From: Candidatus Obscuribacterales bacterium
Lineage (GTDB): Bacteria > Cyanobacteriota > Vampirovibrionia > Obscuribacterales > Obscuribacteraceae
Reading direction: 5' to 3'
DNA length: 64,000 nt
Assembly: GCA_965228855.1 (NCBI GenBank)
Contig: CBDDIJ010000002.1
Span: 2,464,001 to 2,528,000 of the forward strand
The number at the start of each line of letters is the position of its first letter. The stretch's first letter is position 1. Positions 5,456-55,344 of the stretch are shown here, in pieces. A program made the translations under genes and the position numbers. The notes beneath the pieces were generated by a model, which searched no databases, was not told the DNA's origin, and saw nothing but the letters and a program-made list of their open reading frames with translations.

Positions 5456-6709
5456 CTAAGGCAGGACGATTCTTTCTAGTTGTTCTGACGAGTTATCTCC
5501 AGGCTGTGGCGCGGGAGAGCTTTTGGGCGAGTGCTGAGAGATTGGAAACACGTCGCTGTCGGTGAAGATGTTTCGAGATTCTCTCTGGGGCGCGGGTGCT
5601 GATTGTGTGGCTAGATTCGAATGGGAGCGCGCGGGTGTCCTCGCCGCATCTTCTTGCAATTGGAAAATAGACTGAAGCAGTTTGTTTGGCTTCGTTTCCT
5701 TTGTCGCGCTGGTAGGTTCTGCTGGTGGTGGTTTCTCAATCGAGTTCATCGAGGGCGGCTTTGTGATCGGCTTATCCACTGCTTTGTCAGAAGCCTTCGG
5801 TAGTGACTTCGCTTTTGCTTTATCTGATGGTGATAATTGTTCTGAAGACTCGCGCACACTCTGGGGTGGCATACCCGGTACCGTATATGGGGCGTAGCCG
5901 AACATCTGCATCTGATTCAATGGAAATGCCATCGTGGGTGGTGGCGGAGGAACCAGCACCGTCCGAGATGTTTTGGAGCTTCTAGGAAGTCTCGATGATG
6001 GAGAGGCAGAGACGGGTTCTGAATTCTCCCGGTTCCTACTCATTTTACGCCTGGCGTGCTTCGATGACTTAGACTTTTGTGAAGAAAACGGACTAGCCTG
6101 TTTTCCTGTCTTCGTAGTACCACCGATTTCCCTTGAAGTTGTTGACGAAATCCCTCTCTTTGTAGTTTCGCCGGCTTGCGGTTTCAGCAACTTCACTGCG
6201 GACGGAGCGATCGCGGGAGGCATTGCAGCAATAATCTTTGCTGCTGCCCGCTCGAAACCTCCCGGCACAAAGTAGAAAAAGCTGCCGAGTGTGATGGCGC
6301 AGATACCGCCGAAGACAAGCGCTAGCCTCCATGATTGGTCGGGCGCGCGGTGAGTTTCATACCGCTCTGGGTCGTAAGTGTAGATCGGGGGCTCAGGTCT
6401 TGCGGCTTTCCGCGCCATTCCGGGCATAAAACTCGCAGGCACCAGGTTTTCATTGAAAAAGCTCATTGAGAGCCTCACGTTTGTTCCGTCCGAAAGCCTG
6501 AGCGCCAGGTCGGAGACAGACGCGAGCTCGTCTTCTTCCATCGGCACCTCGGTTTGGGCCGCGAGGCAAACAACTTTGTTTGTCCGAGGGTGGACGATTC
6601 GCTTTGCTAGTGAGACTTGAACCGTGGGTGCTAAGTATGTTCCGACTGGTTCTACCGTCACTGCACGGCTTTCTTCCTCGGTTGCGGGAATGAGTTCTGT
6701 TCCTTTCAT
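5456..6709 (-). CDS. Hypothetical single-pass membrane protein, Pro/Ser/Lys-rich C-terminal region
   Basis: 417-aa ORF, one TM (LALVFGGICAITLGSFFYFV), low-complexity tail. Confidence 0.7.
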   Translation of the reverse strand: MKGTELIPATEEESRAVTVEPVGTYLAPTVQVSLAKRIVHPRTNKVVCLAAQTEVPMEEDELASVSDLALRLSDGTNVRLSMSFFNENLVPASFMPGMARKAARPEPPIYTYDPERYETHRAPDQSWRLALVFGGICAITLGSFFYFVPGGFERAAAKIIAAMPPAIAPSAVKLLKPQAGETTKRGISSTTSREIGGTTKTGKQASPFSSQKSKSSKHARRKMSRNRENSEPVSASPSSRLPRSSKTSRTVLVPPPPPTMAFPLNQMQMFGYAPYTVPGMPPQSVRESSEQLSPSDKAKAKSLPKASDKAVDKPITKPPSMNSIEKPPPAEPTSATKETKPNKLLQSIFQLQEDAARTPARSHSNLATQSAPAPQRESRNIFTDSDVFPISQHSPKSSPAPQPGDNSSEQLERIVLP

Positions 6710-6987
6710 TTTGCGCGAGACCCGAAATCTTGCTAACGACGCCTTTTTTTCGATATTGGATAGTGATCTATATACCGCGGAGTCTTTTCTTTCTAACTCC
6801 TGGAGCGGTTTTTCGTTAATCGAAAGAATCTAATCCTTCGAGTATATTTCAAAGAGGCGCATCCAATCTCTGTTGTCGGGAACGAGATCGCTTCGAGTTC
6901 GGAAGGAAATTTTACCGATTTCGAAGCAGTTGCTATGGCCTTCTAGTGGGTATGAAACAATTGCATTATCTAAGGATGGAGTCGACA

Positions 6988-7374
6988 ATGTCAGTCACGC
7001 TTACAGTGTGCGAGAAAAGTCCAGGTGGACCGCCTGCCGAAGAGTATTCACTCGAGCTCAAAGAAGAGCGAATCACAGTGCGCGATTTGATTCAAAACAT
7101 TGTCTTTCATCAAGTTTATAAACTGAATACTGCCGCGCGAGATTGGAATCGTATGGCGGATGCCAGAGAGCAATTGCTGAATTCTAAGCCTGCCGGCCAG
7201 GGACGTACGATAGATTGGGTTCCGAAGTTCGAGCAGGCTCTCAAGGCGTTTGAAAATAATCAGATCGTTCTTCTCGTTGATGACACTCAGGTCGAGGAGC
7301 TTAACGAATTCGTTGATTTGACTCCGAAGACAAAGGTAACTTTTTTGAAACTTGTTCCGCTAGTTGGGGGCTAA
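6988..7374 (+). CDS. Ubiquitin/MoaD/ThiS-like beta-grasp protein with C-terminal GG and a helical insertion
   Basis: GGAG RBS, ATG 6988; TVRDLI helix motif; C-terminus LLVDDTQVEELNEFVDLTPKTKVTFLKLVPLVGG-stop resembles MoaD/SAMP/Urm1 C-termini. Confidence 0.7.
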   Translation: MSVTLTVCEKSPGGPPAEEYSLELKEERITVRDLIQNIVFHQVYKLNTAARDWNRMADAREQLLNSKPAGQGRTIDWVPKFEQALKAFENNQIVLLVDDTQVEELNEFVDLTPKTKVTFLKLVPLVGG

Positions 7375-7375
7375 G

Positions 7376-9862
7376 ATGTCGCTTTTCAAAAAGCTTGTGG
7401 ATGTGTTTTCCGGAGAGAACACCGAATCCGGTGGCGGACTGAAATTGTCTGCAGAGTCAAAAATGTTGTTTGATGCCTACCTCAACGAAGCATTCAACAT
7501 GAACGCTTATGACATGACGGCCGCAAACAGTTTGGCCGCGAAGGAAATCAGCGAAGCTGCCCCTGAACTGCAAATGGAGATTCTCAAAGAATCGATGCGC
7601 AGGCATAACGAAGCACACTCTTATAGCGATCACATCACGTTGAAGCAGTTGGAAGAGATGCTTCTTCGTAAACACTTGAAATACTCGGAGGAGGACATTC
7701 TAACGATTTTCGCAATAGCAGGCAGTGCCAAGAAAAGCAGTTGGAGTTCTCCTCATAGCGCATGGCTTGCTGGGATTGCTGAGCGTTATTCGAAGGAAAA
7801 CCAGCTGTCCGATGACGTCAAATTGGCATTTCAGTCGCTTGTAGATCGCTTGATAGCTGAGTCGAATGACGCGAGCACTCGAAAACTAGTTCGAGCGTTG
7901 ACCGTTTTATTAAGTGATGCGGGCGAGAATGCCGTGCCGTTTGCCGTGAACGGCTACGAGGCTTGGGGAGCAAAAGCTATAGCTGACGTTCGAGCGCTGC
8001 CGGATGAACCACTGTTGAACTGGAAACGTCTTTTAGAGTATGCCACTACTTGCAGTGGCAGCACGCCATCAAAAAGGTGGCAAGATGGTGCCCTCAAGTA
8101 CTTACAAAAAGTTGACCAGGAAGTTTTTGTGAACTTCATAGACAGCTGGTTCTCGCTTGTTGGAACTAGAGGGACCTATCCTGAAAAACAGAGAGACCGT
8201 TACTCGATAGATCCTAACGAAACGCTGACCTCAGAAAGTGCGGATTTGCTAAAAGGTCTGGCGTGGATATCTATTCAAGTAGATGATCCGCGTCTGGCGC
8301 GCGCACTCGGCGATGCTGCCAACGCTAGTTTTAAGAAAGTCGTTAACGTCGGACCACGTTGTCCGAAACTTGGGAATGCGTGTGTCGGTGCCCTGAGTAA
8401 CTTGAAATCGAAAGAGGCGATTGCGCAATTGGGTCGTTTGAAGTCCAGCGTGAAACACGCCTCCACTCGCAATACAATCGAGAAGGCTTTGAACAACGCC
8501 GCGACCAGAGCTGGTATGTCAGTGCAAGACCTCGAGGAATTGAACGTTCCCGATTACGGTTTCATGGAGGTTGGAAAGTTTGTACAAAACTTCGAAGCCC
8601 ACCGCGCTGAGATCGTGATTGATGGTTCCAGCGTCTCATTGCATTGGTTCGATGTCACCAATAAGGAACACAAGTCAGTTCCAGCCAAGGTGAAATCCGA
8701 CCATCCGGCCGAGGTGAAGGCACTTAAAAAGACACTGGACGATGTCGAAAAACAGCTCTCTGCGATTCGCTACAGAATAGAGACCAGTCTGATACGGCAG
8801 CGACATTGGGCGTTCAAGGATTTGAAGGAGCGCTACCTGGAGCATCCGATCGCGGCTGCGATAGCGCGCCGCCTAATTTGGCGAGTCAATGGAAAATCAG
8901 CGATTTATCTCGATGGCGAAATGGTCGATGTGCAAAGTTGTCGCGTGGAAACACCTGATAATGCAATTGTGGAACTCTGGCATCCGGTTGCGTCTGAAGC
9001 TGAAGAGGTGCTTGCCTGGCGGATGTTCTTGCGCGGTCATGAAATCACTCAACCGTTCAAGCAGGCTCATCGCGAAATATATGTCCTTACTCCTGCTGAA
9101 ATCGAGACGGACACGTATTCGAATCGTTTCGCCGCGCATGTTTTGAAACAGCATCAATTCAATCAACTCTGCCAACAGCGGGGCTGGAAGTATCGTCTTC
9201 AGGGGGCCTGGGATAGTTACAACACACCATACCTTGAGTTGCCGCAATGGGATTTGATCGCGGAGTTTTTCGTTGAACCGGTAACAGATGAGGCGTCGGC
9301 AACCGGAATATTCACGCACTGCGTTTCCGACCAATTAAGATTTAGAAGGTCGAACGGTGAATCGGTATCGCTTGTTGAAGTAATGCCTATCGTGTTAACG
9401 GAAGTGATGCGCGACCTCGATTTGTTTGTCGGGGTTTGCAGCATCGGAAACGATCCAACCTGGATCGACGCCGGAGACACTCACCACGGTTACTGGCATG
9501 CCTTTTCATTTGGTGACCTTTCTGCGTCCGCGGAAACGCGCAAGGACGTTCTAAAAGAGATTTTACCAGCTCTGAAGATCAAGGCGAGGTGCCGGATAGA
9601 AGGAAAGTTTTTGATTGTGCAGGGCGATATTCGAACATACAAGATTCACCTTGGAAGCGGCAATATCTTGATGGAACCGAACGATCAGTATCTCTGCATC
9701 GTTCCCGAGCGTGGTGGCAAAAGCAGTGGCACTTCAAAAATCTACCTTCCCTTTGAAGGCGATGGAGTTTTGTCCGTGATTCTAAGCAAGGCTATGATGC
9801 TAGCAAATGACTCGAAAATCACGGATCCAACTATCGTGCGTCAGATCAATTTTAGAACCTAG
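7376..9862 (+). CDS. DUF4132 domain-containing protein
   Basis: LEELNVPDYG, YLEHP...ARRLIW, LWHP, QPFKQAHREIY, EVMRDLDLFV and a conserved-looking tail RTYKIHLGSGNILMEPNDQYLCIVP...LPFEGD; ATG 1 nt after the upstream stop. Confidence 0.88.
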   Translation: MSLFKKLVDVFSGENTESGGGLKLSAESKMLFDAYLNEAFNMNAYDMTAANSLAAKEISEAAPELQMEILKESMRRHNEAHSYSDHITLKQLEEMLLRKHLKYSEEDILTIFAIAGSAKKSSWSSPHSAWLAGIAERYSKENQLSDDVKLAFQSLVDRLIAESNDASTRKLVRALTVLLSDAGENAVPFAVNGYEAWGAKAIADVRALPDEPLLNWKRLLEYATTCSGSTPSKRWQDGALKYLQKVDQEVFVNFIDSWFSLVGTRGTYPEKQRDRYSIDPNETLTSESADLLKGLAWISIQVDDPRLARALGDAANASFKKVVNVGPRCPKLGNACVGALSNLKSKEAIAQLGRLKSSVKHASTRNTIEKALNNAATRAGMSVQDLEELNVPDYGFMEVGKFVQNFEAHRAEIVIDGSSVSLHWFDVTNKEHKSVPAKVKSDHPAEVKALKKTLDDVEKQLSAIRYRIETSLIRQRHWAFKDLKERYLEHPIAAAIARRLIWRVNGKSAIYLDGEMVDVQSCRVETPDNAIVELWHPVASEAEEVLAWRMFLRGHEITQPFKQAHREIYVLTPAEIETDTYSNRFAAHVLKQHQFNQLCQQRGWKYRLQGAWDSYNTPYLELPQWDLIAEFFVEPVTDEASATGIFTHCVSDQLRFRRSNGESVSLVEVMPIVLTEVMRDLDLFVGVCSIGNDPTWIDAGDTHHGYWHAFSFGDLSASAETRKDVLKEILPALKIKARCRIEGKFLIVQGDIRTYKIHLGSGNILMEPNDQYLCIVPERGGKSSGTSKIYLPFEGDGVLSVILSKAMMLANDSKITDPTIVRQINFRT

Positions 9863-43843: not shown

Positions 43844-44464
43844 TTAGTCCTGGATTCCGAGCAATGCCTGTTGCATAAGAATTAAACGCAGGTTGACGCC
43901 GCGCAGGTCGAAGCTGTCAGCATCGAAATCTCCACCTGCCCAGTCAAGCAGTTCCATTCCCTCATCACATGCGGGATCTTCAACTTTATCGAGAAAATCT
44001 TTGTAGCCGGGCGGACCGCCGACGTCTTCGGGCGGGCACGCGCGTCTGCCGCCGAGGCACGTCACAAATCCCTCGCCTTCACCCTCGTGTACCTCCTCAA
44101 CAACCACGTCGTGAAACCAATCATCGCCGTAGTCGTAGAGGTACACGAATGTGTCGCCGGCTTTCTCTGCAAGATCGCCTAGCGTGAAATTGCTTTCGTC
44201 ACGGTATCTACTCGAATCCATGTCGGGATCTTCGGCACCGTAGCTGATACCACCAGACTGGAACTCGTGAGCGTGTGTGTCCCACCATCCCATCGAAATT
44301 TGAAAGCACTCATGAACAAGTGCCAGCGGTGTCGATGTTTTAATGACGAGGCGTCTCCAGATTGGAAGCGGCGCGTTACGCAACGTCACTTTCATTCGAA
44401 ACATCGCATTATCTGATTTCTTCGCGTTCTTAGTTATTCGTCGCTTTGCTACTTTTCCAGCCAT
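43844..44464 (-). CDS. Plasmid pRiA4b ORF-3 family protein
   Basis: PIWRR, MGW..H.HEF, YLYDYGDDW, RACPPEDVGG..GY. Confidence 0.92.
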   Translation of the reverse strand: MAGKVAKRRITKNAKKSDNAMFRMKVTLRNAPLPIWRRLVIKTSTPLALVHECFQISMGWWDTHAHEFQSGGISYGAEDPDMDSSRYRDESNFTLGDLAEKAGDTFVYLYDYGDDWFHDVVVEEVHEGEGEGFVTCLGGRRACPPEDVGGPPGYKDFLDKVEDPACDEGMELLDWAGGDFDADSFDLRGVNLRLILMQQALLGIQD

Positions 44465-50629: not shown

Positions 50630-50704
50630 TGTCCTGTTGGGTTGTACACATTTGAGAATTTAGTTTCGAGATGCGAAACTGTTTTAATGAGTTTGAGGAA
50701 TCCC

Positions 50705-52693
50705 ATGAATAAGTCGTTCTTTGTTTCGATCTGCATGTGCTTAATCGGAGCGCACGCCGCTGCCGAGGAAATCGGCTCGGGAAAAGGGCTGTATCGCGAT
50801 CGTCCGTCGCAAGCTTCCGAATCGAACATGTCGCTATCCAGAGAGGCGGCGCAAGCCAGGCTTGACGAGAACGCTAGCAAGTCGTTGGAGTTGTCGACCC
50901 AGTTCGCAACTCTTGTTCAGAAACATTTAGAGCTCGCCGGCAAATACGACGTCGATGCTTTTCGGAAAAACGATGATGAACTCGCGACATTGTTTGAGAA
51001 GATGGATGCGAATTATCTTGAGTCGCGCATGTTGTACAACCATCTTGGACTCTCTGAGGAACCACTGGATGTCGACAAGAAGAGTATTCAGGACTCGAAG
51101 ATGTTTATGTACAAGAGTTCTGCGATCTTCAATTTGTGTTTCGGCCGTCCTATGAATTCCGCTCAATTGAGCCGGCTTTCGCTAAATCTAAGCGAGCATG
51201 CAACTGGTAAGAAGGAGTTCGAGCCAGATGTGCTTTATTACCTGGGCTCTGCATTATGTTGGGCTGGCGATTACAAGAATGCCGAGAGTCAGCTGAGGAG
51301 CGCAATCACTATAGGGAAAGGAAGACCGTTTACTCAGTTGAAGGCCGGCGAGGCTGTGAATGTTGGTGGGCAGAATCCGTTTGCGGCGCAACAGCTTGCG
51401 ACTGTTTTGTTGGCCGAGAATGAGACGGGCAAAGCAATCGACCTGTTGAGGCAAACCCGTGCAACTGCTCCGAGTGATGAAATTCGAGGTAATGCTGACG
51501 CACTGTTAGCGGTGGCATCATCATTGGACGCTAACCAGAATTCGCGAAACGTTGTGCGAGAATCCGTAGTCAATGCGAAACGGGAGTTAAGTCAGCGTCA
51601 GAGTCAAACATTTCCTGCGGTAGCGACGGAGTCGCTTGGTATTGCCAGCGCGGTTGAAGGTAATTACGCGGAAGCGGATAAACTGTTGTCCGAGGCAATT
51701 CCGAAGTTGCAAGAGTCGCCTATCAAGTTGGGCAATCGGCTGGAAGCTGCGCAAGCGTCCTTGTGGCGTGCTTATTGTCGTGATCGATTGGGAAACAAAA
51801 TTGGTTGCGACCAGGACCTCAAGTATGCTATGTCGTTTGCGGATGATGCACCGCATCTGGTGACCGTTTCGAAAATGCTAAATAAGGTTTTCGGCAAAGA
51901 GCTGTTCAAGCCTGTTGCCAAACAATCTTCGCAGAAGTGGGCAATCGTAGTTGGGCTGAGCGATTTTGCCGATCCGAAAATTCCAAAGCTCAAGTATCCC
52001 AAGAAGGATGCTGAAGATGTGGCGAAATTCCTGGTAGAACATGCCGGTTTTCAGACCGATCATATTCGCACGCTCACGAACGATGGGGCGACCAAAGATG
52101 AATTCTTGAACAGCATAGCCGGAAACTGGTTGCCTTCTGTCACCAGGCCGGACGATGTTGTTTTCATCTTCGTCTCGTCTCATGGTACGCCAGCCTACGA
52201 AGACGTTGGTGCAATGAATTCCGTTGTTACATACGATACGAAGATGGATCAGTTATTCTCGACGTCCATTCCGATGCAAAACATAGTGCGTTTGCTAAGT
52301 TCGAAACTAAGCAAGCGGCACGTATTTGTCGTGCTCGATACCTGTTATGCCGGCGGGCTTGGCGCGCCGGTTTCTAACAATCATTCTGCCAACAGCATAG
52401 ACCCGGAATTCTTGTTGAGCTCAAATTACCAATTGCTCGTCAGTTCCAGCAGTGGAAACGAAAAGTCGTGGGAGTCCAAACGTTATCCAAACAGCGTGTT
52501 TACAAGGCAAATGATTGATGCGTTGACGGACAATCAAAACTACGAGCGCTTCGAGTCGGTTTTCGATTTGATTCAGATGAGAGTTTCGGAGGAAGTGTCG
52601 GCCGACCACAAGGGAACCACACAGACTCCAAGTTTTTCAGGACTGTGGCATGGCAGGGAGCTGGCAAAAGATTCCAGGGCGGCTCAGGAATAG
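50705..52693 (+). CDS. TPR + caspase-like (peptidase C14) protein with signal peptide
   Basis: KWAIVVG, KDA, SSHG (His), LDTCYAG (Cys), SWES...SVFT, QTP; N-terminal ..AHAAA-E. Confidence 0.88.
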   Translation: MNKSFFVSICMCLIGAHAAAEEIGSGKGLYRDRPSQASESNMSLSREAAQARLDENASKSLELSTQFATLVQKHLELAGKYDVDAFRKNDDELATLFEKMDANYLESRMLYNHLGLSEEPLDVDKKSIQDSKMFMYKSSAIFNLCFGRPMNSAQLSRLSLNLSEHATGKKEFEPDVLYYLGSALCWAGDYKNAESQLRSAITIGKGRPFTQLKAGEAVNVGGQNPFAAQQLATVLLAENETGKAIDLLRQTRATAPSDEIRGNADALLAVASSLDANQNSRNVVRESVVNAKRELSQRQSQTFPAVATESLGIASAVEGNYAEADKLLSEAIPKLQESPIKLGNRLEAAQASLWRAYCRDRLGNKIGCDQDLKYAMSFADDAPHLVTVSKMLNKVFGKELFKPVAKQSSQKWAIVVGLSDFADPKIPKLKYPKKDAEDVAKFLVEHAGFQTDHIRTLTNDGATKDEFLNSIAGNWLPSVTRPDDVVFIFVSSHGTPAYEDVGAMNSVVTYDTKMDQLFSTSIPMQNIVRLLSSKLSKRHVFVVLDTCYAGGLGAPVSNNHSANSIDPEFLLSSNYQLLVSSSSGNEKSWESKRYPNSVFTRQMIDALTDNQNYERFESVFDLIQMRVSEEVSADHKGTTQTPSFSGLWHGRELAKDSRAAQE

Positions 52694-53559: not shown

Positions 53560-55344
53560 ATGGCAAAAGCAGGCACGAGTAAGAACAAGATAGATGTGAA
53601 GAAATTCGCACTTGAGCTGGATGGTGCTTTCAATCTGAGCGAGCTCAATGCGTTTTACCGATCGCATGTGGGGACCGGCGGTCCGACGAGGAAATACGAG
53701 CTTGCTACCCAGCTGGCGACGTTTTTCACTTGCGAACAATTGAAGGCGACTTTTGAAAAACTGGAGCCGCTCGAGAAGCTTGCTGTCTCTGAAGCCGTTC
53801 ATTCGGAGGACGGTTTCGATCCTGAGATGTTTGAAGCGAAGTATGGAATGTGTCCCGCGTTTCGCTTGGATTTTAAAAACGCCCCCTCCGCGGCCTGGCT
53901 GTTCATGAGATATGAGGTCTTTCGCGGTCATCGTGCCCGTCCTTCCCTGGAGGCATGCCTGAAGAGTATCGTGCCGCTTCCGCAGGGCGCGCAGATCAAC
54001 ATAACCAGAACACCTCTGCGTGAAGTATTCAAAGAGGATAAAGCGGCTCGAGTAGAATATTTTGCGCGAAGCGAGCTTGCCCAGGTTGAGCTTGGTGCGA
54101 TGCTCAAGGCTGTGCAGGATGGTCTGATTGTAGTCTCCGAGAAAACCGGCTTGCCATCCAGCGACACACTGGCGAAGATTACCCGGATGATCAAGTCTGA
54201 TTATTATCAATGGCTTGATGCAGCTGACTACAAGCCGATTGGTCCGATGCGGGCATTCGCGTGGCCAATGCTCTTGACGCACGCCAGACTGGTTGTCCAG
54301 GATGGGAAAAGGCTGAAGATCGCGAGTTCCGCGAAGAATGCAAAATCGCTTCACGACGTCGAGTTGCTGCGGGAGATTTGGTTCGCATTCATAGAATGTA
54401 CCTTTGATGAGCTCAGCCGCATTAGCTCTGTCAGGGGGCCGCGCAATGGTCGCTACTCGATGTCGACGTCTCGAATTCGTCGGCGCGCAATTGTGGAGAC
54501 GCTCAAGCAATGTCCGCAAGATGCCTGGATCGAGTTCGATGAGTTTGTTCGATTTTTGCGTGCTTCAGGAAATACTTTTGTTGTTTCTTATCAACCCTGG
54601 AACATGTACAGTTCTTACGGCGCTTCGCTCGGAATGGTCGGCGATCAGTTGCTGCAAGAACTTTATGTGCGAGCTTTTCTTTTCGAGTACGCATCGACGT
54701 TGGGACTGATTGATATTGCCGTGGTGCCTCCTGAGTACTCAAGGCGTAATTGCGAGTCTGGCTATTTCGAAAATTTCAGCCGCTATGACGGATTGCTCTA
54801 CTTCCGAATAAATGAGGTCGGCGCATTCTGTTTGAGTGAAACCGCCAACAGCAAATTCACAAGCGGAGATGCTCCGAAGTTGTCTGTTCGTCCTAGCCTG
54901 CGAATCGCTCATGTGGAGGGCAATTTGTCTGTGGCAAACAAATTGATACTTGATGCGTTCGCTGAAAATATTGCAGATGGTGTCTGGGACCTTTCGCGTG
55001 CACGAGCGATTGCCGCTTGTGAAGCGGGTCAGGACATAGGTGATCTGCACGAACTTTTGACTATGCTCGACGAGCAGGAACTGCCTGATCAAGTTGAGAC
55101 TTTCATTTCGCAGGTCCGGTCAAGATTTACTGCGGTAGAAAGCGCAGGTGCTGCCGAACTATTCACTTGTCGCGATTCTGCTATCGCGAAAGAGATCAGC
55201 AGCCATACACTAATGAAGGACCTATGCAGTCTGGTTGGAGAGAAGCAGCTCGTTGTGATGCAAAACAAAGTCGAAAAGTTTCGCAAGACTCTTCATACAA
55301 TTGGTTACGGAACTGTTGAAACTGTTAGAAATCAGCGGCGATAG
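53560..55344 (+). CDS. Helicase-associated (XPB N-terminal-like, Helicase_C_3) domain protein without helicase motifs
   Basis: FLFEY..TLGLID, LDAFA...WDLSR...A...G...L; no Walker A or DEAD motif seen. Confidence 0.6.
   Translation: MAKAGTSKNKIDVKKFALELDGAFNLSELNAFYRSHVGTGGPTRKYELATQLATFFTCEQLKATFEKLEPLEKLAVSEAVHSEDGFDPEMFEAKYGMCPAFRLDFKNAPSAAWLFMRYEVFRGHRARPSLEACLKSIVPLPQGAQINITRTPLREVFKEDKAARVEYFARSELAQVELGAMLKAVQDGLIVVSEKTGLPSSDTLAKITRMIKSDYYQWLDAADYKPIGPMRAFAWPMLLTHARLVVQDGKRLKIASSAKNAKSLHDVELLREIWFAFIECTFDELSRISSVRGPRNGRYSMSTSRIRRRAIVETLKQCPQDAWIEFDEFVRFLRASGNTFVVSYQPWNMYSSYGASLGMVGDQLLQELYVRAFLFEYASTLGLIDIAVVPPEYSRRNCESGYFENFSRYDGLLYFRINEVGAFCLSETANSKFTSGDAPKLSVRPSLRIAHVEGNLSVANKLILDAFAENIADGVWDLSRARAIAACEAGQDIGDLHELLTMLDEQELPDQVETFISQVRSRFTAVESAGAAELFTCRDSAIAKEISSHTLMKDLCSLVGEKQLVVMQNKVEKFRKTLHTIGYGTVETVRNQRR

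Follow-up and report, generated by a model that had tools for sequence, protein, structure and literature searches.

Two adjoining genes in the 64,000-nucleotide window analysed here (the whole stretch at positions 2,464,001 to 2,528,000 of contig CBDDIJ010000002.1 of a Candidatus Obscuribacterales bacterium) are likely to constitute a bacterial protein-tagging module. The first (6988..7374, + strand) encodes a protein of 128 amino acids that ends in LVPLVGG-stop and is predicted to be ubiquitin-like (hereafter Ubl); the second (7376..9862, + strand), whose ATG at 7376 is separated from the Ubl stop codon by one base, encodes a partner of 828 amino acids that contains the Pfam families DUF4132 (residues 430-604) and DUF7737 (residues 719-824). 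The C-terminal Gly-Gly (GG) of the Ubl and a cysteine of DUF7737, Cys774, covary across the family. We infer, tentatively but as a reading that could well be correct, that the GG protein is activated (adenylated) by a ThiF/MoeB-type E1 encoded elsewhere in the genome, and that Cys774 of DUF7737, a domain predicted to be loosely E2-like, would next accept it as a thioester. The large protein would be a fused carrier and substrate-binding scaffold that, under DNA-damage stress, passes the tag to a lysine of a target or of the partner itself, switching a tag-independent DUF4132 core. Both open reading frames (ORFs) had been recognized, at 128 and approximately 830 residues, in a first-pass annotation made from the sequence alone, which named DUF4132 correctly and left DUF7737 unnamed.

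The Ubl gene is preceded by GGAG (6978..6981, +), a likely ribosome-binding site 6 nucleotides 5' of its ATG at 6988. An in-frame GTG at 6946 is a possible start for a 142-residue form; relatives begin at the same methionine as the 128-residue form. The Ubl has no match in Pfam at E ≤ 1 and none in NCBIfam or PADLOC, and its profile gave nothing significant in a PDB sequence search. The beta-grasp fold surmised in the first-pass annotation is nevertheless strongly indicated by an AlphaFold2 model built from 142 sequences (predicted local distance difference test, pLDDT, 78.7): a structure search of 48,161 chains placed human MOCS2A first (Z 10.0, root-mean-square deviation (rmsd) 2.8, 80 residues aligned), and all of the top 50 matches, SAMP1 and Urm1 structures among them, are ubiquitin-like or beta-grasp entries or chains with such a domain. 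Foldseek with the same model returned nothing at E ≤ 0.001 (best E 3.6e-3), and an ESM Atlas search returned unnamed clusters only. Residues 31-89 (7078..7254, +; assigned from DSSP and pLDDT of the model) form a long helix, a low-confidence loop (52-71) and a second helix; this part contains an insertion specific to the family, and its residues N47, E61, Q80, A84 and F88 are kept in 92-100% of 133 sequences.

The GG codons (7366..7371, +) stand immediately before the Ubl stop. Profile searching recovered 2414 relatives at 50% clustering, across many phyla, and among the best 150 of these GG is the C-terminal end in 148. In the source genome GG closes just 31 of the 4849 stop-to-stop frames that reach 250 amino acids, so the tail is conserved beyond chance. 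A word-seeded search (65/65) and the best 80 loci (79/79, one frameshifted locus being unscored) gave counts that are biased, since these searches were seeded partly on the tail. Conservation of GG, as first supposed, holds for these relatives but not for a Prevotella-type subfamily, homologous to the GG family (hhalign 92%), in which 85 of 102 proteins end in TGLYF instead.

The pairing of the two genes was surveyed in the best 80 of at least 458 genome stretches with a Ubl match, and proved to be conserved, as had been proposed: the partner is directly downstream of the Ubl gene in 68 loci and directly upstream in six (adjacent in 74/80), further off or partial in two, and absent from four, of which two are on short contigs and two belong to genomes with a DUF7737 gene elsewhere. 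Clustering of ORFs of at least 90 amino acids revealed no third recurring gene in these loci; the largest other neighbour cluster, shadow frames aside, is protein kinase-like and occurs in seven of the 80. No E1, E2, JAB, sulfur-pathway, MoaE, ThiG, cysteine-synthase or defence gene recurs beside the pair in the same loci. Among 201 genomes sampled evenly from the phylum to which the window belongs, DUF4132 is present in 18, DUF7737 in nine and the Ubl in six; all six Ubl genomes possess both DUF4132 and DUF7737, and none of the nine genomes with DUF4132 only has a Ubl. Two actinomycete Ubl genes (L143 and L144) have no partner within the 8-10 kb examined. The pair is single-copy in the source genome, its closest named relative, 96% identical, being from a Candidatus Obscuribacterales genome. 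Codon changes against the nearest relative are mostly silent, silent and replacement changes numbering 20 and 5 in the Ubl gene and 122 and 34 in the partner gene. As to a mobile origin, the Ubl was unmatched in phage records and viral contigs and matched four records in a plasmid set, and the G+C content of the window is flat near 0.49. At three loci (L021, L070 and L169) one Ubl gene has two partner genes around or after it. A putative partner-Ubl fusion (P0151) was rejected: its residues 630-835 look off-frame (R+G+P+H 0.57, D+E 0.03) and lack DUF7737.

The partner matches DUF4132 (8663..9187, +; E 3.7e-50, 170.8 bits) and DUF7737 (9530..9847, +; E 5.1e-41, 139.3 bits), the cut-off being 27 in both cases. 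Its N-terminal region (residues 1-394; 7376..8557, +) is variable, with low conservation before residue 185, and probably consists of helical repeats: it has non-significant matches to designed helical repeats (E 0.36), and its long relatives match HEAT_2. Residues 395-828, modelled from 129 sequences with a pLDDT of 90.6, were split by the structure search into three parts. Residues 395-465 gave PH/EVH1-like matches (Z up to 5.6); a middle domain (residues 579-689; 9110..9442, +), TBP-like or helix-grip in shape and containing E676, R679 and D680, matched 2pww_A (Z 8.2, rmsd 2.9, 98 aligned); and the DUF7737 part is weakly E2-like in shape, eight of the nine matches that cover it among the top 50 being of the E2/UBC type, with Z of only 4.2-4.6 and rmsd of 3.6-4.6, values taken from the 434-residue model. 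The best of them (Z 4.6, 91 aligned) is 8tyz_C, a chain, presumably the E2, of a bacterial E1-E2-Ubl complex. The others (Z 4.2-4.5) are UBE2G2 (Z 4.5), Ube2K, UBCi, UBE2J2, Ubc9, a SidC-UbcH7 chain and 8qat_D, a chain of the FTS complex that we take to be an E2 variant. In the model Cys774 is located after a meander of strands and ahead of the helices that close the domain. A PDB search with the partner profile gave nothing significant, Foldseek with residues 395-828 found no PDB entry at E ≤ 0.001, and an ESM Atlas search with residues 555-828 gave no usable match; a viral Foldseek match to residues 395-828 (E 4.8e-4) was discarded for its rmsd of 21.7.

Both motifs to which the first-pass annotation drew attention near the C-terminus are present in the partner, YKIHLGSG holding His758 and YLCIVP holding Cys774 (9695..9697, +), the residue proposed to accept the GG tail as a thioester. 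Partners fall into a short type, as here, in which H758 and C774 are invariant (73/73), and a long, DUF5724-type form, in which H758 and S761 are found in 110 of 110 and the cysteine in 47. Among 123 partners with DUF7737, GG occurs with Cys774 in 108 and without it in one; another tail accompanies lack of the cysteine in four and GGA its presence in one; and where no Ubl lies within 3 kb, the cysteine is missing from eight and present in one. Cys774 is thus found in 108 of the 109 partners that adjoin a GG protein and is absent from 12 of the 14 others. The table includes loci picked by DUF7737 in four phyla, most of its GG rows having been picked by the Ubl; three of the eight rows with neither Ubl nor cysteine lie near contig ends; and five rows without DUF7737 columns, 3'-open or short fragments and duplicate Prevotella-type loci were left out, as were L137 and L138, which have the cysteine and no Ubl nearby, with a GG Ubl elsewhere in the genome. 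When only rows chosen by the partner are counted, by hand, the cysteine is present in 27 of 28 GG loci and absent from 12 of 14 others (12 of 15 with L137).

Of approximately 395 alignment columns, Cys774 ranks first in tracking GG (0.99 with GG versus 0.14 without), T578 tying with it on the rounded difference. Independent contrasts on a FastTree phylogeny, which was built with the cysteine column included, were concordant in five of seven cases (one of these with three of four rows), tied in two and discordant in none; the five-to-none outcome is suggestive of covariation, not strong. GG status is likewise followed by T578, Y581, N583, H588 and D652, which may be no more than subfamily markers. 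The motif H758-L-G-S761 (9647..9658, +) is kept in both partner types with or without Cys774, at 0.99 where GG is present and 0.86 where it is not, and was dropped as a candidate tag-specific site. Of the two residues singled out at the outset, then, the cysteine is tied to GG, whereas the histidine is kept where GG and the cysteine are both lost. H536, the QPFKQxHRExY motif (559-569), R584, W604, E676, R679 and D680 are likewise kept in partners without a GG tag; because it is retained without the tag, this core likely does a tag-independent job.

The same distribution bears on two other ways of explaining the pair. The Ubl might act non-covalently, as a plug or adaptor that inserts its tail into a pocket of DUF7737 and restrains the partner in the manner of an antitoxin, with no tagging. 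Pairs that persist with TGLYF, TGLMW or AGRMW tails and no cysteine, the retention of H758, S761, P792, F793 and D796 regardless of GG status, and the tight translational coupling of the two genes would suit such a role. It is nonetheless improbable, in that several lineages have acquired or shed the cysteine and GG jointly, a pattern not required by simple binding, and partners without a nearby Ubl exist (L102, L103, L161 and L176). Alternatively, DUF7737 might be a protease of the His-Cys kind, acting to take off or shorten the tag, conjugation being performed by the host E1 alone, for which SAMP chemistry is the model; the joint presence of H758 and C774 in every short partner would fit, and a remover is otherwise missing, as no JAB exceeds the cut-off in the genome. 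No cysteine-protease fold appears among the matches listed for the DUF7737 part, however, the histidine is kept where the cysteine is lost, and the tag as synthesized already has a free GG end, all of which make this a very unlikely explanation. Ubl homologues that end in TGLYF, TGLMW, AGRMW or AGA (L109:2843-3247, L131:1-486, L133:2023-2436 and L158:2020-2493) adjoin long partners without the cysteine, and scans of viral collections returned only bacterial-type long partners, also without it, with Ubl tails TGLYF, TGLMW or AGRMW. This branch could be either non-covalent or composed of precursors trimmed after a single glycine. L088, L102 and L103, from genomes without a Ubl match, combine DUF4132 with a degenerate DUF7737 that lacks the cysteine and has lost the histidine or the serine.

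For the favoured reading, in which a distant E1 activates the tag, the source genome offers three ThiF-family genes, all on other contigs. One encodes a ThiF-rhodanese protein beside a ThiS-family gene and the other two are small. Their presence proves little, because 11 of the 14 control genomes likewise have ThiF above the cut-off. A 211-amino-acid stand-alone ThiF gene is located directly after a 317-amino-acid gene without a Pfam family (L092:503-2100; contig C3, ~1365.7-1367.3 kb); this possible orphan E1 module is a candidate E1 for the tag. The third ThiF-family gene, of approximately 220 amino acids, is divergent (L093:1477-2136; contig C5). The only JAB match in the source genome is below the cut-off. 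As the first-pass annotation had noted, no ThiF, E2, JAB, MoaE or ThiG gene is visible in the window: none appeared among the best five Pfam families at E ≤ 0.001 for its 57 non-overlapping ORFs of at least 75 amino acids. Its suggestion that the system is independent of an E1 found no support: with three ThiF genes on other contigs, the lack of one in these 64 kb does not point that way, and no E1-like fold is among the matches listed for partner residues 395-828. The partner has no PF00899 (ThiF) match, nor does its contig.

A single-protein alternative can still be framed, in which an unrecognised nucleotide site in the DUF4132 or middle core of the partner activates the GG tail and loads Cys774, so that one protein would accomplish DNA-damage ubiquitination with its core as activator, its E2-like cysteine as carrier and its N-terminus as selector of targets, and with no ThiF-type E1. 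That no E1 gene recurs in the 80 loci, that a near-invariant polar core (H536, Q559, Q563, R566, E567, Y569, R584, E676, R679 and D680) has no close solved relative, and that the five residues from T578 to D652 follow GG status, perhaps only as subfamily marks, are in its favour. The invariant core, however, is kept in partners without a GG tag; of the 18 genomes with DUF4132, 12 lack the Ubl; the top 50 matches for residues 395-828 include no adenylating fold, of the ThiF type or otherwise; and, since nothing follows GG in the tag, transpeptidation would have no extension to drive it. Both self-activation and the one-protein scheme built on it are accordingly judged unlikely.

Relatives, rather than the source genome, indicate that the module is probably tied to DNA-damage stress. 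In Deinococcus radiodurans the operon drA0165-drA0166 is upregulated on depletion of DdrO and is listed with a DdrO box, and mitomycin C raises DRA0166 by way of IrrE, according to the available portions of PMC8533742 and its preprint. The available text of PMC9650054 reports that DR_A0165 is induced by radiation and peroxide, that its deletion improves survival of peroxide, and that it binds the thioredoxin Trx1; the tables available with that paper contain no row naming MoeB or ThiF. In actinomycetes, 5 of 13 loci have a motif of the PafBC type (the LexA-independent P1 promoter; consensus from PMC5656591) 25-32 nucleotides upstream of the start codon, versus 38 of 3900 control windows (1%), at one mismatch or fewer. 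Upstream regions of L119, L120, L121 and L127 have TGTCG-led, PafBC/P1-like sequences with shifted spacing, which were excluded from this count. In two of 120 listed long relatives (P0215 and P0216, approximately 1480 amino acids) the partner follows an ATP-dependent DNA ligase with OB and WGR domains.

The Deinococcus results also enter into a sulfur or redox relay, in which the Ubl would be thiocarboxylated by a MoeB-rhodanese protein and deliver sulfur either to Cys774 or to some substrate that the partner binds, much as MoaD does with MoaE. The closest folds to the Ubl are molybdopterin-synthase small subunits (5mpo and 6jc0), a ThiF-rhodanese gene is in the genome, and the binding of Trx1 and the peroxide phenotype (PMC9650054, available text) would accord with redox chemistry. 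Such a relay is improbable, given that no sulfur-pathway gene recurs nearby in the 80 loci, that moeA and moeB are unchanged when the operon is induced (PMC8533742, available text), and that the cysteine domain resembles E2-type entries, not MoaE, among the matches listed.

Several observations weigh against activation by a distant E1 followed by a thioester on Cys774 under DNA damage. As regards the family, the pair persists without GG chemistry in the Prevotella-type subfamily, the cysteine is missing from 63 of 110 long partners, L159 has GG without it, and there is neither a dedicated E1 nor a JAB neighbour in the Ubl-partner family, nor a JAB over the cut-off here. As regards the predicted E2, Z of 4.2-4.6 is at a level that the search tool grades as 'common arrangement', and the E2-type matches do not place Cys774 over the E2 catalytic cysteine; 42 DUF7737 members significantly match only DUF7737 and not the UQ_con or Prok-E2 families of Pfam, a PDB search with the DUF7737 profile gave nothing significant, and hhalign of DUF7737 with two Prok-E2_E proteins gave probabilities of 0.2 and 1.0 percent. 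As regards stress, the available text of PMC9650054 gives no DdrO box, contradicting PMC8533742; DR_A0166 is in none of its available proteome or pull-down tables, the pull-down having used unstressed cells and the bait, DR_A0165, being listed in an 83-residue form; 81 upstream regions showed no enrichment of LexA-type boxes; and no known damage box marks this window.

A close parallel is found in D. radiodurans, whose genome is over the cut-off for DUF7737, DUF4132 and DUF5724 and in which, as here, a small GG-ended gene (DR_A0165, SEP068184) precedes a DUF4132 gene (DR_A0166). DR_A0165 is a candidate homologue of the Ubl: when the two are set side by side by eye and without gaps, its final 45 residues include 21 matches. 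DR_A0166 is of the long type, with 1626 amino acids against 828 here. DR_A0165 is predicted to be MoaD/SAMP1-like and is called Deinococcus-specific in PMC9650054, the available text of which does not discuss the GG tail, or DR_A0166, as part of a system. It is listed with 83 amino acids in the supplement to that paper and with 104 in another record, the family being of approximately 130-140; the annotated protein may lack the first strands. Escherichia coli proteins of the MolR/YehI type (names in part from PMC8533742) have the DUF4132 core in common with the partner, and E. coli is over the cut-off for DUF4132 and not for DUF7737. MolR, YehI and HEAT are not mentioned in PMC1779556 (term search, supplements aside).

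Gene content distinguishes the pair from the known bacterial systems. Bil operons all encode a Ubl, an E2, a JAB and an E1, and Bub operons encode an E1, an E2 and DUF6527 (PMC11601603, available text). These share with the pair a beta-grasp Ubl and a sporadic distribution; here an E2-like domain with its cysteine is only a candidate, without a sequence link between DUF7737 and a BubB-like E2. Unlike them, the pair consists of two genes with no E1, JAB or DUF6527, its E2-like part ends a protein of 800-1800 amino acids, and it fails both the Bil and the Bub definitions. Carriers of the MoaD-MoaE-MoeB and ThiS-ThiG-ThiF pathways are, like the Ubl, beta-grasp proteins with a C-terminal GG (PMC12355090, available text), whereas the Ubl, at 128 amino acids, contains an extended helical insertion and has neither a Pfam ThiS match nor a MoaE or ThiG neighbour, and the source genome has a separate ThiS-family gene. 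SAMP, TtuB and Urm1 depend on a general E1 whose gene lies elsewhere, as proposed here, and are not known to need an E2; by contrast, a dedicated cysteine-bearing partner travels with the tag in this family. The pair is predicted to act like a Ubl conjugation module, yet lies outside Bil, Bub and MoaD/ThiS as they are defined in the available parts of PMC11601603 and PMC12355090. No literature was found on DUF7737, DUF5724 or the three Pfam accessions, nor any account of the pair as a ubiquitin-like system, in a search outside which lay subscription papers and the supplementary tables of comparative-genomics papers.

The bacterial Ubl conjugation systems described in PMC11601603 (available text) bring an E1 of their own and, where a role has been shown, act against phages. 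An anti-phage role had been suggested for this pair also, and found no backing, there being no PADLOC match and no recurring defence neighbour in the 80 loci. The Ubl-partner family differs from those systems in having two genes only and DNA-damage controls in two distant groups. If Cys774 takes the tag, DUF7737 would represent a new class of E2-like domain and offer the first biochemical handle on DUF4132 proteins. Direct testing is possible because knockout and tagged strains of D. radiodurans have already been published, and natural lineages that have lost both GG and the cysteine provide built-in controls.

Other genes of the window include a divergent ORF (5456..6709, - strand) that encodes a Pro/Ser-rich protein of 417 amino acids without a Pfam family and shares its upstream region with the pair. 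A pRiA4b ORF-3-like protein is encoded at 43847..44464 (- strand), a 683-amino-acid protein with TPR and caspase-like Peptidase_C14 domains at 50642..52690 (+ strand), and a 594-amino-acid protein with a Helicase_C_3 match below the cut-off at 53560..55341 (+ strand).

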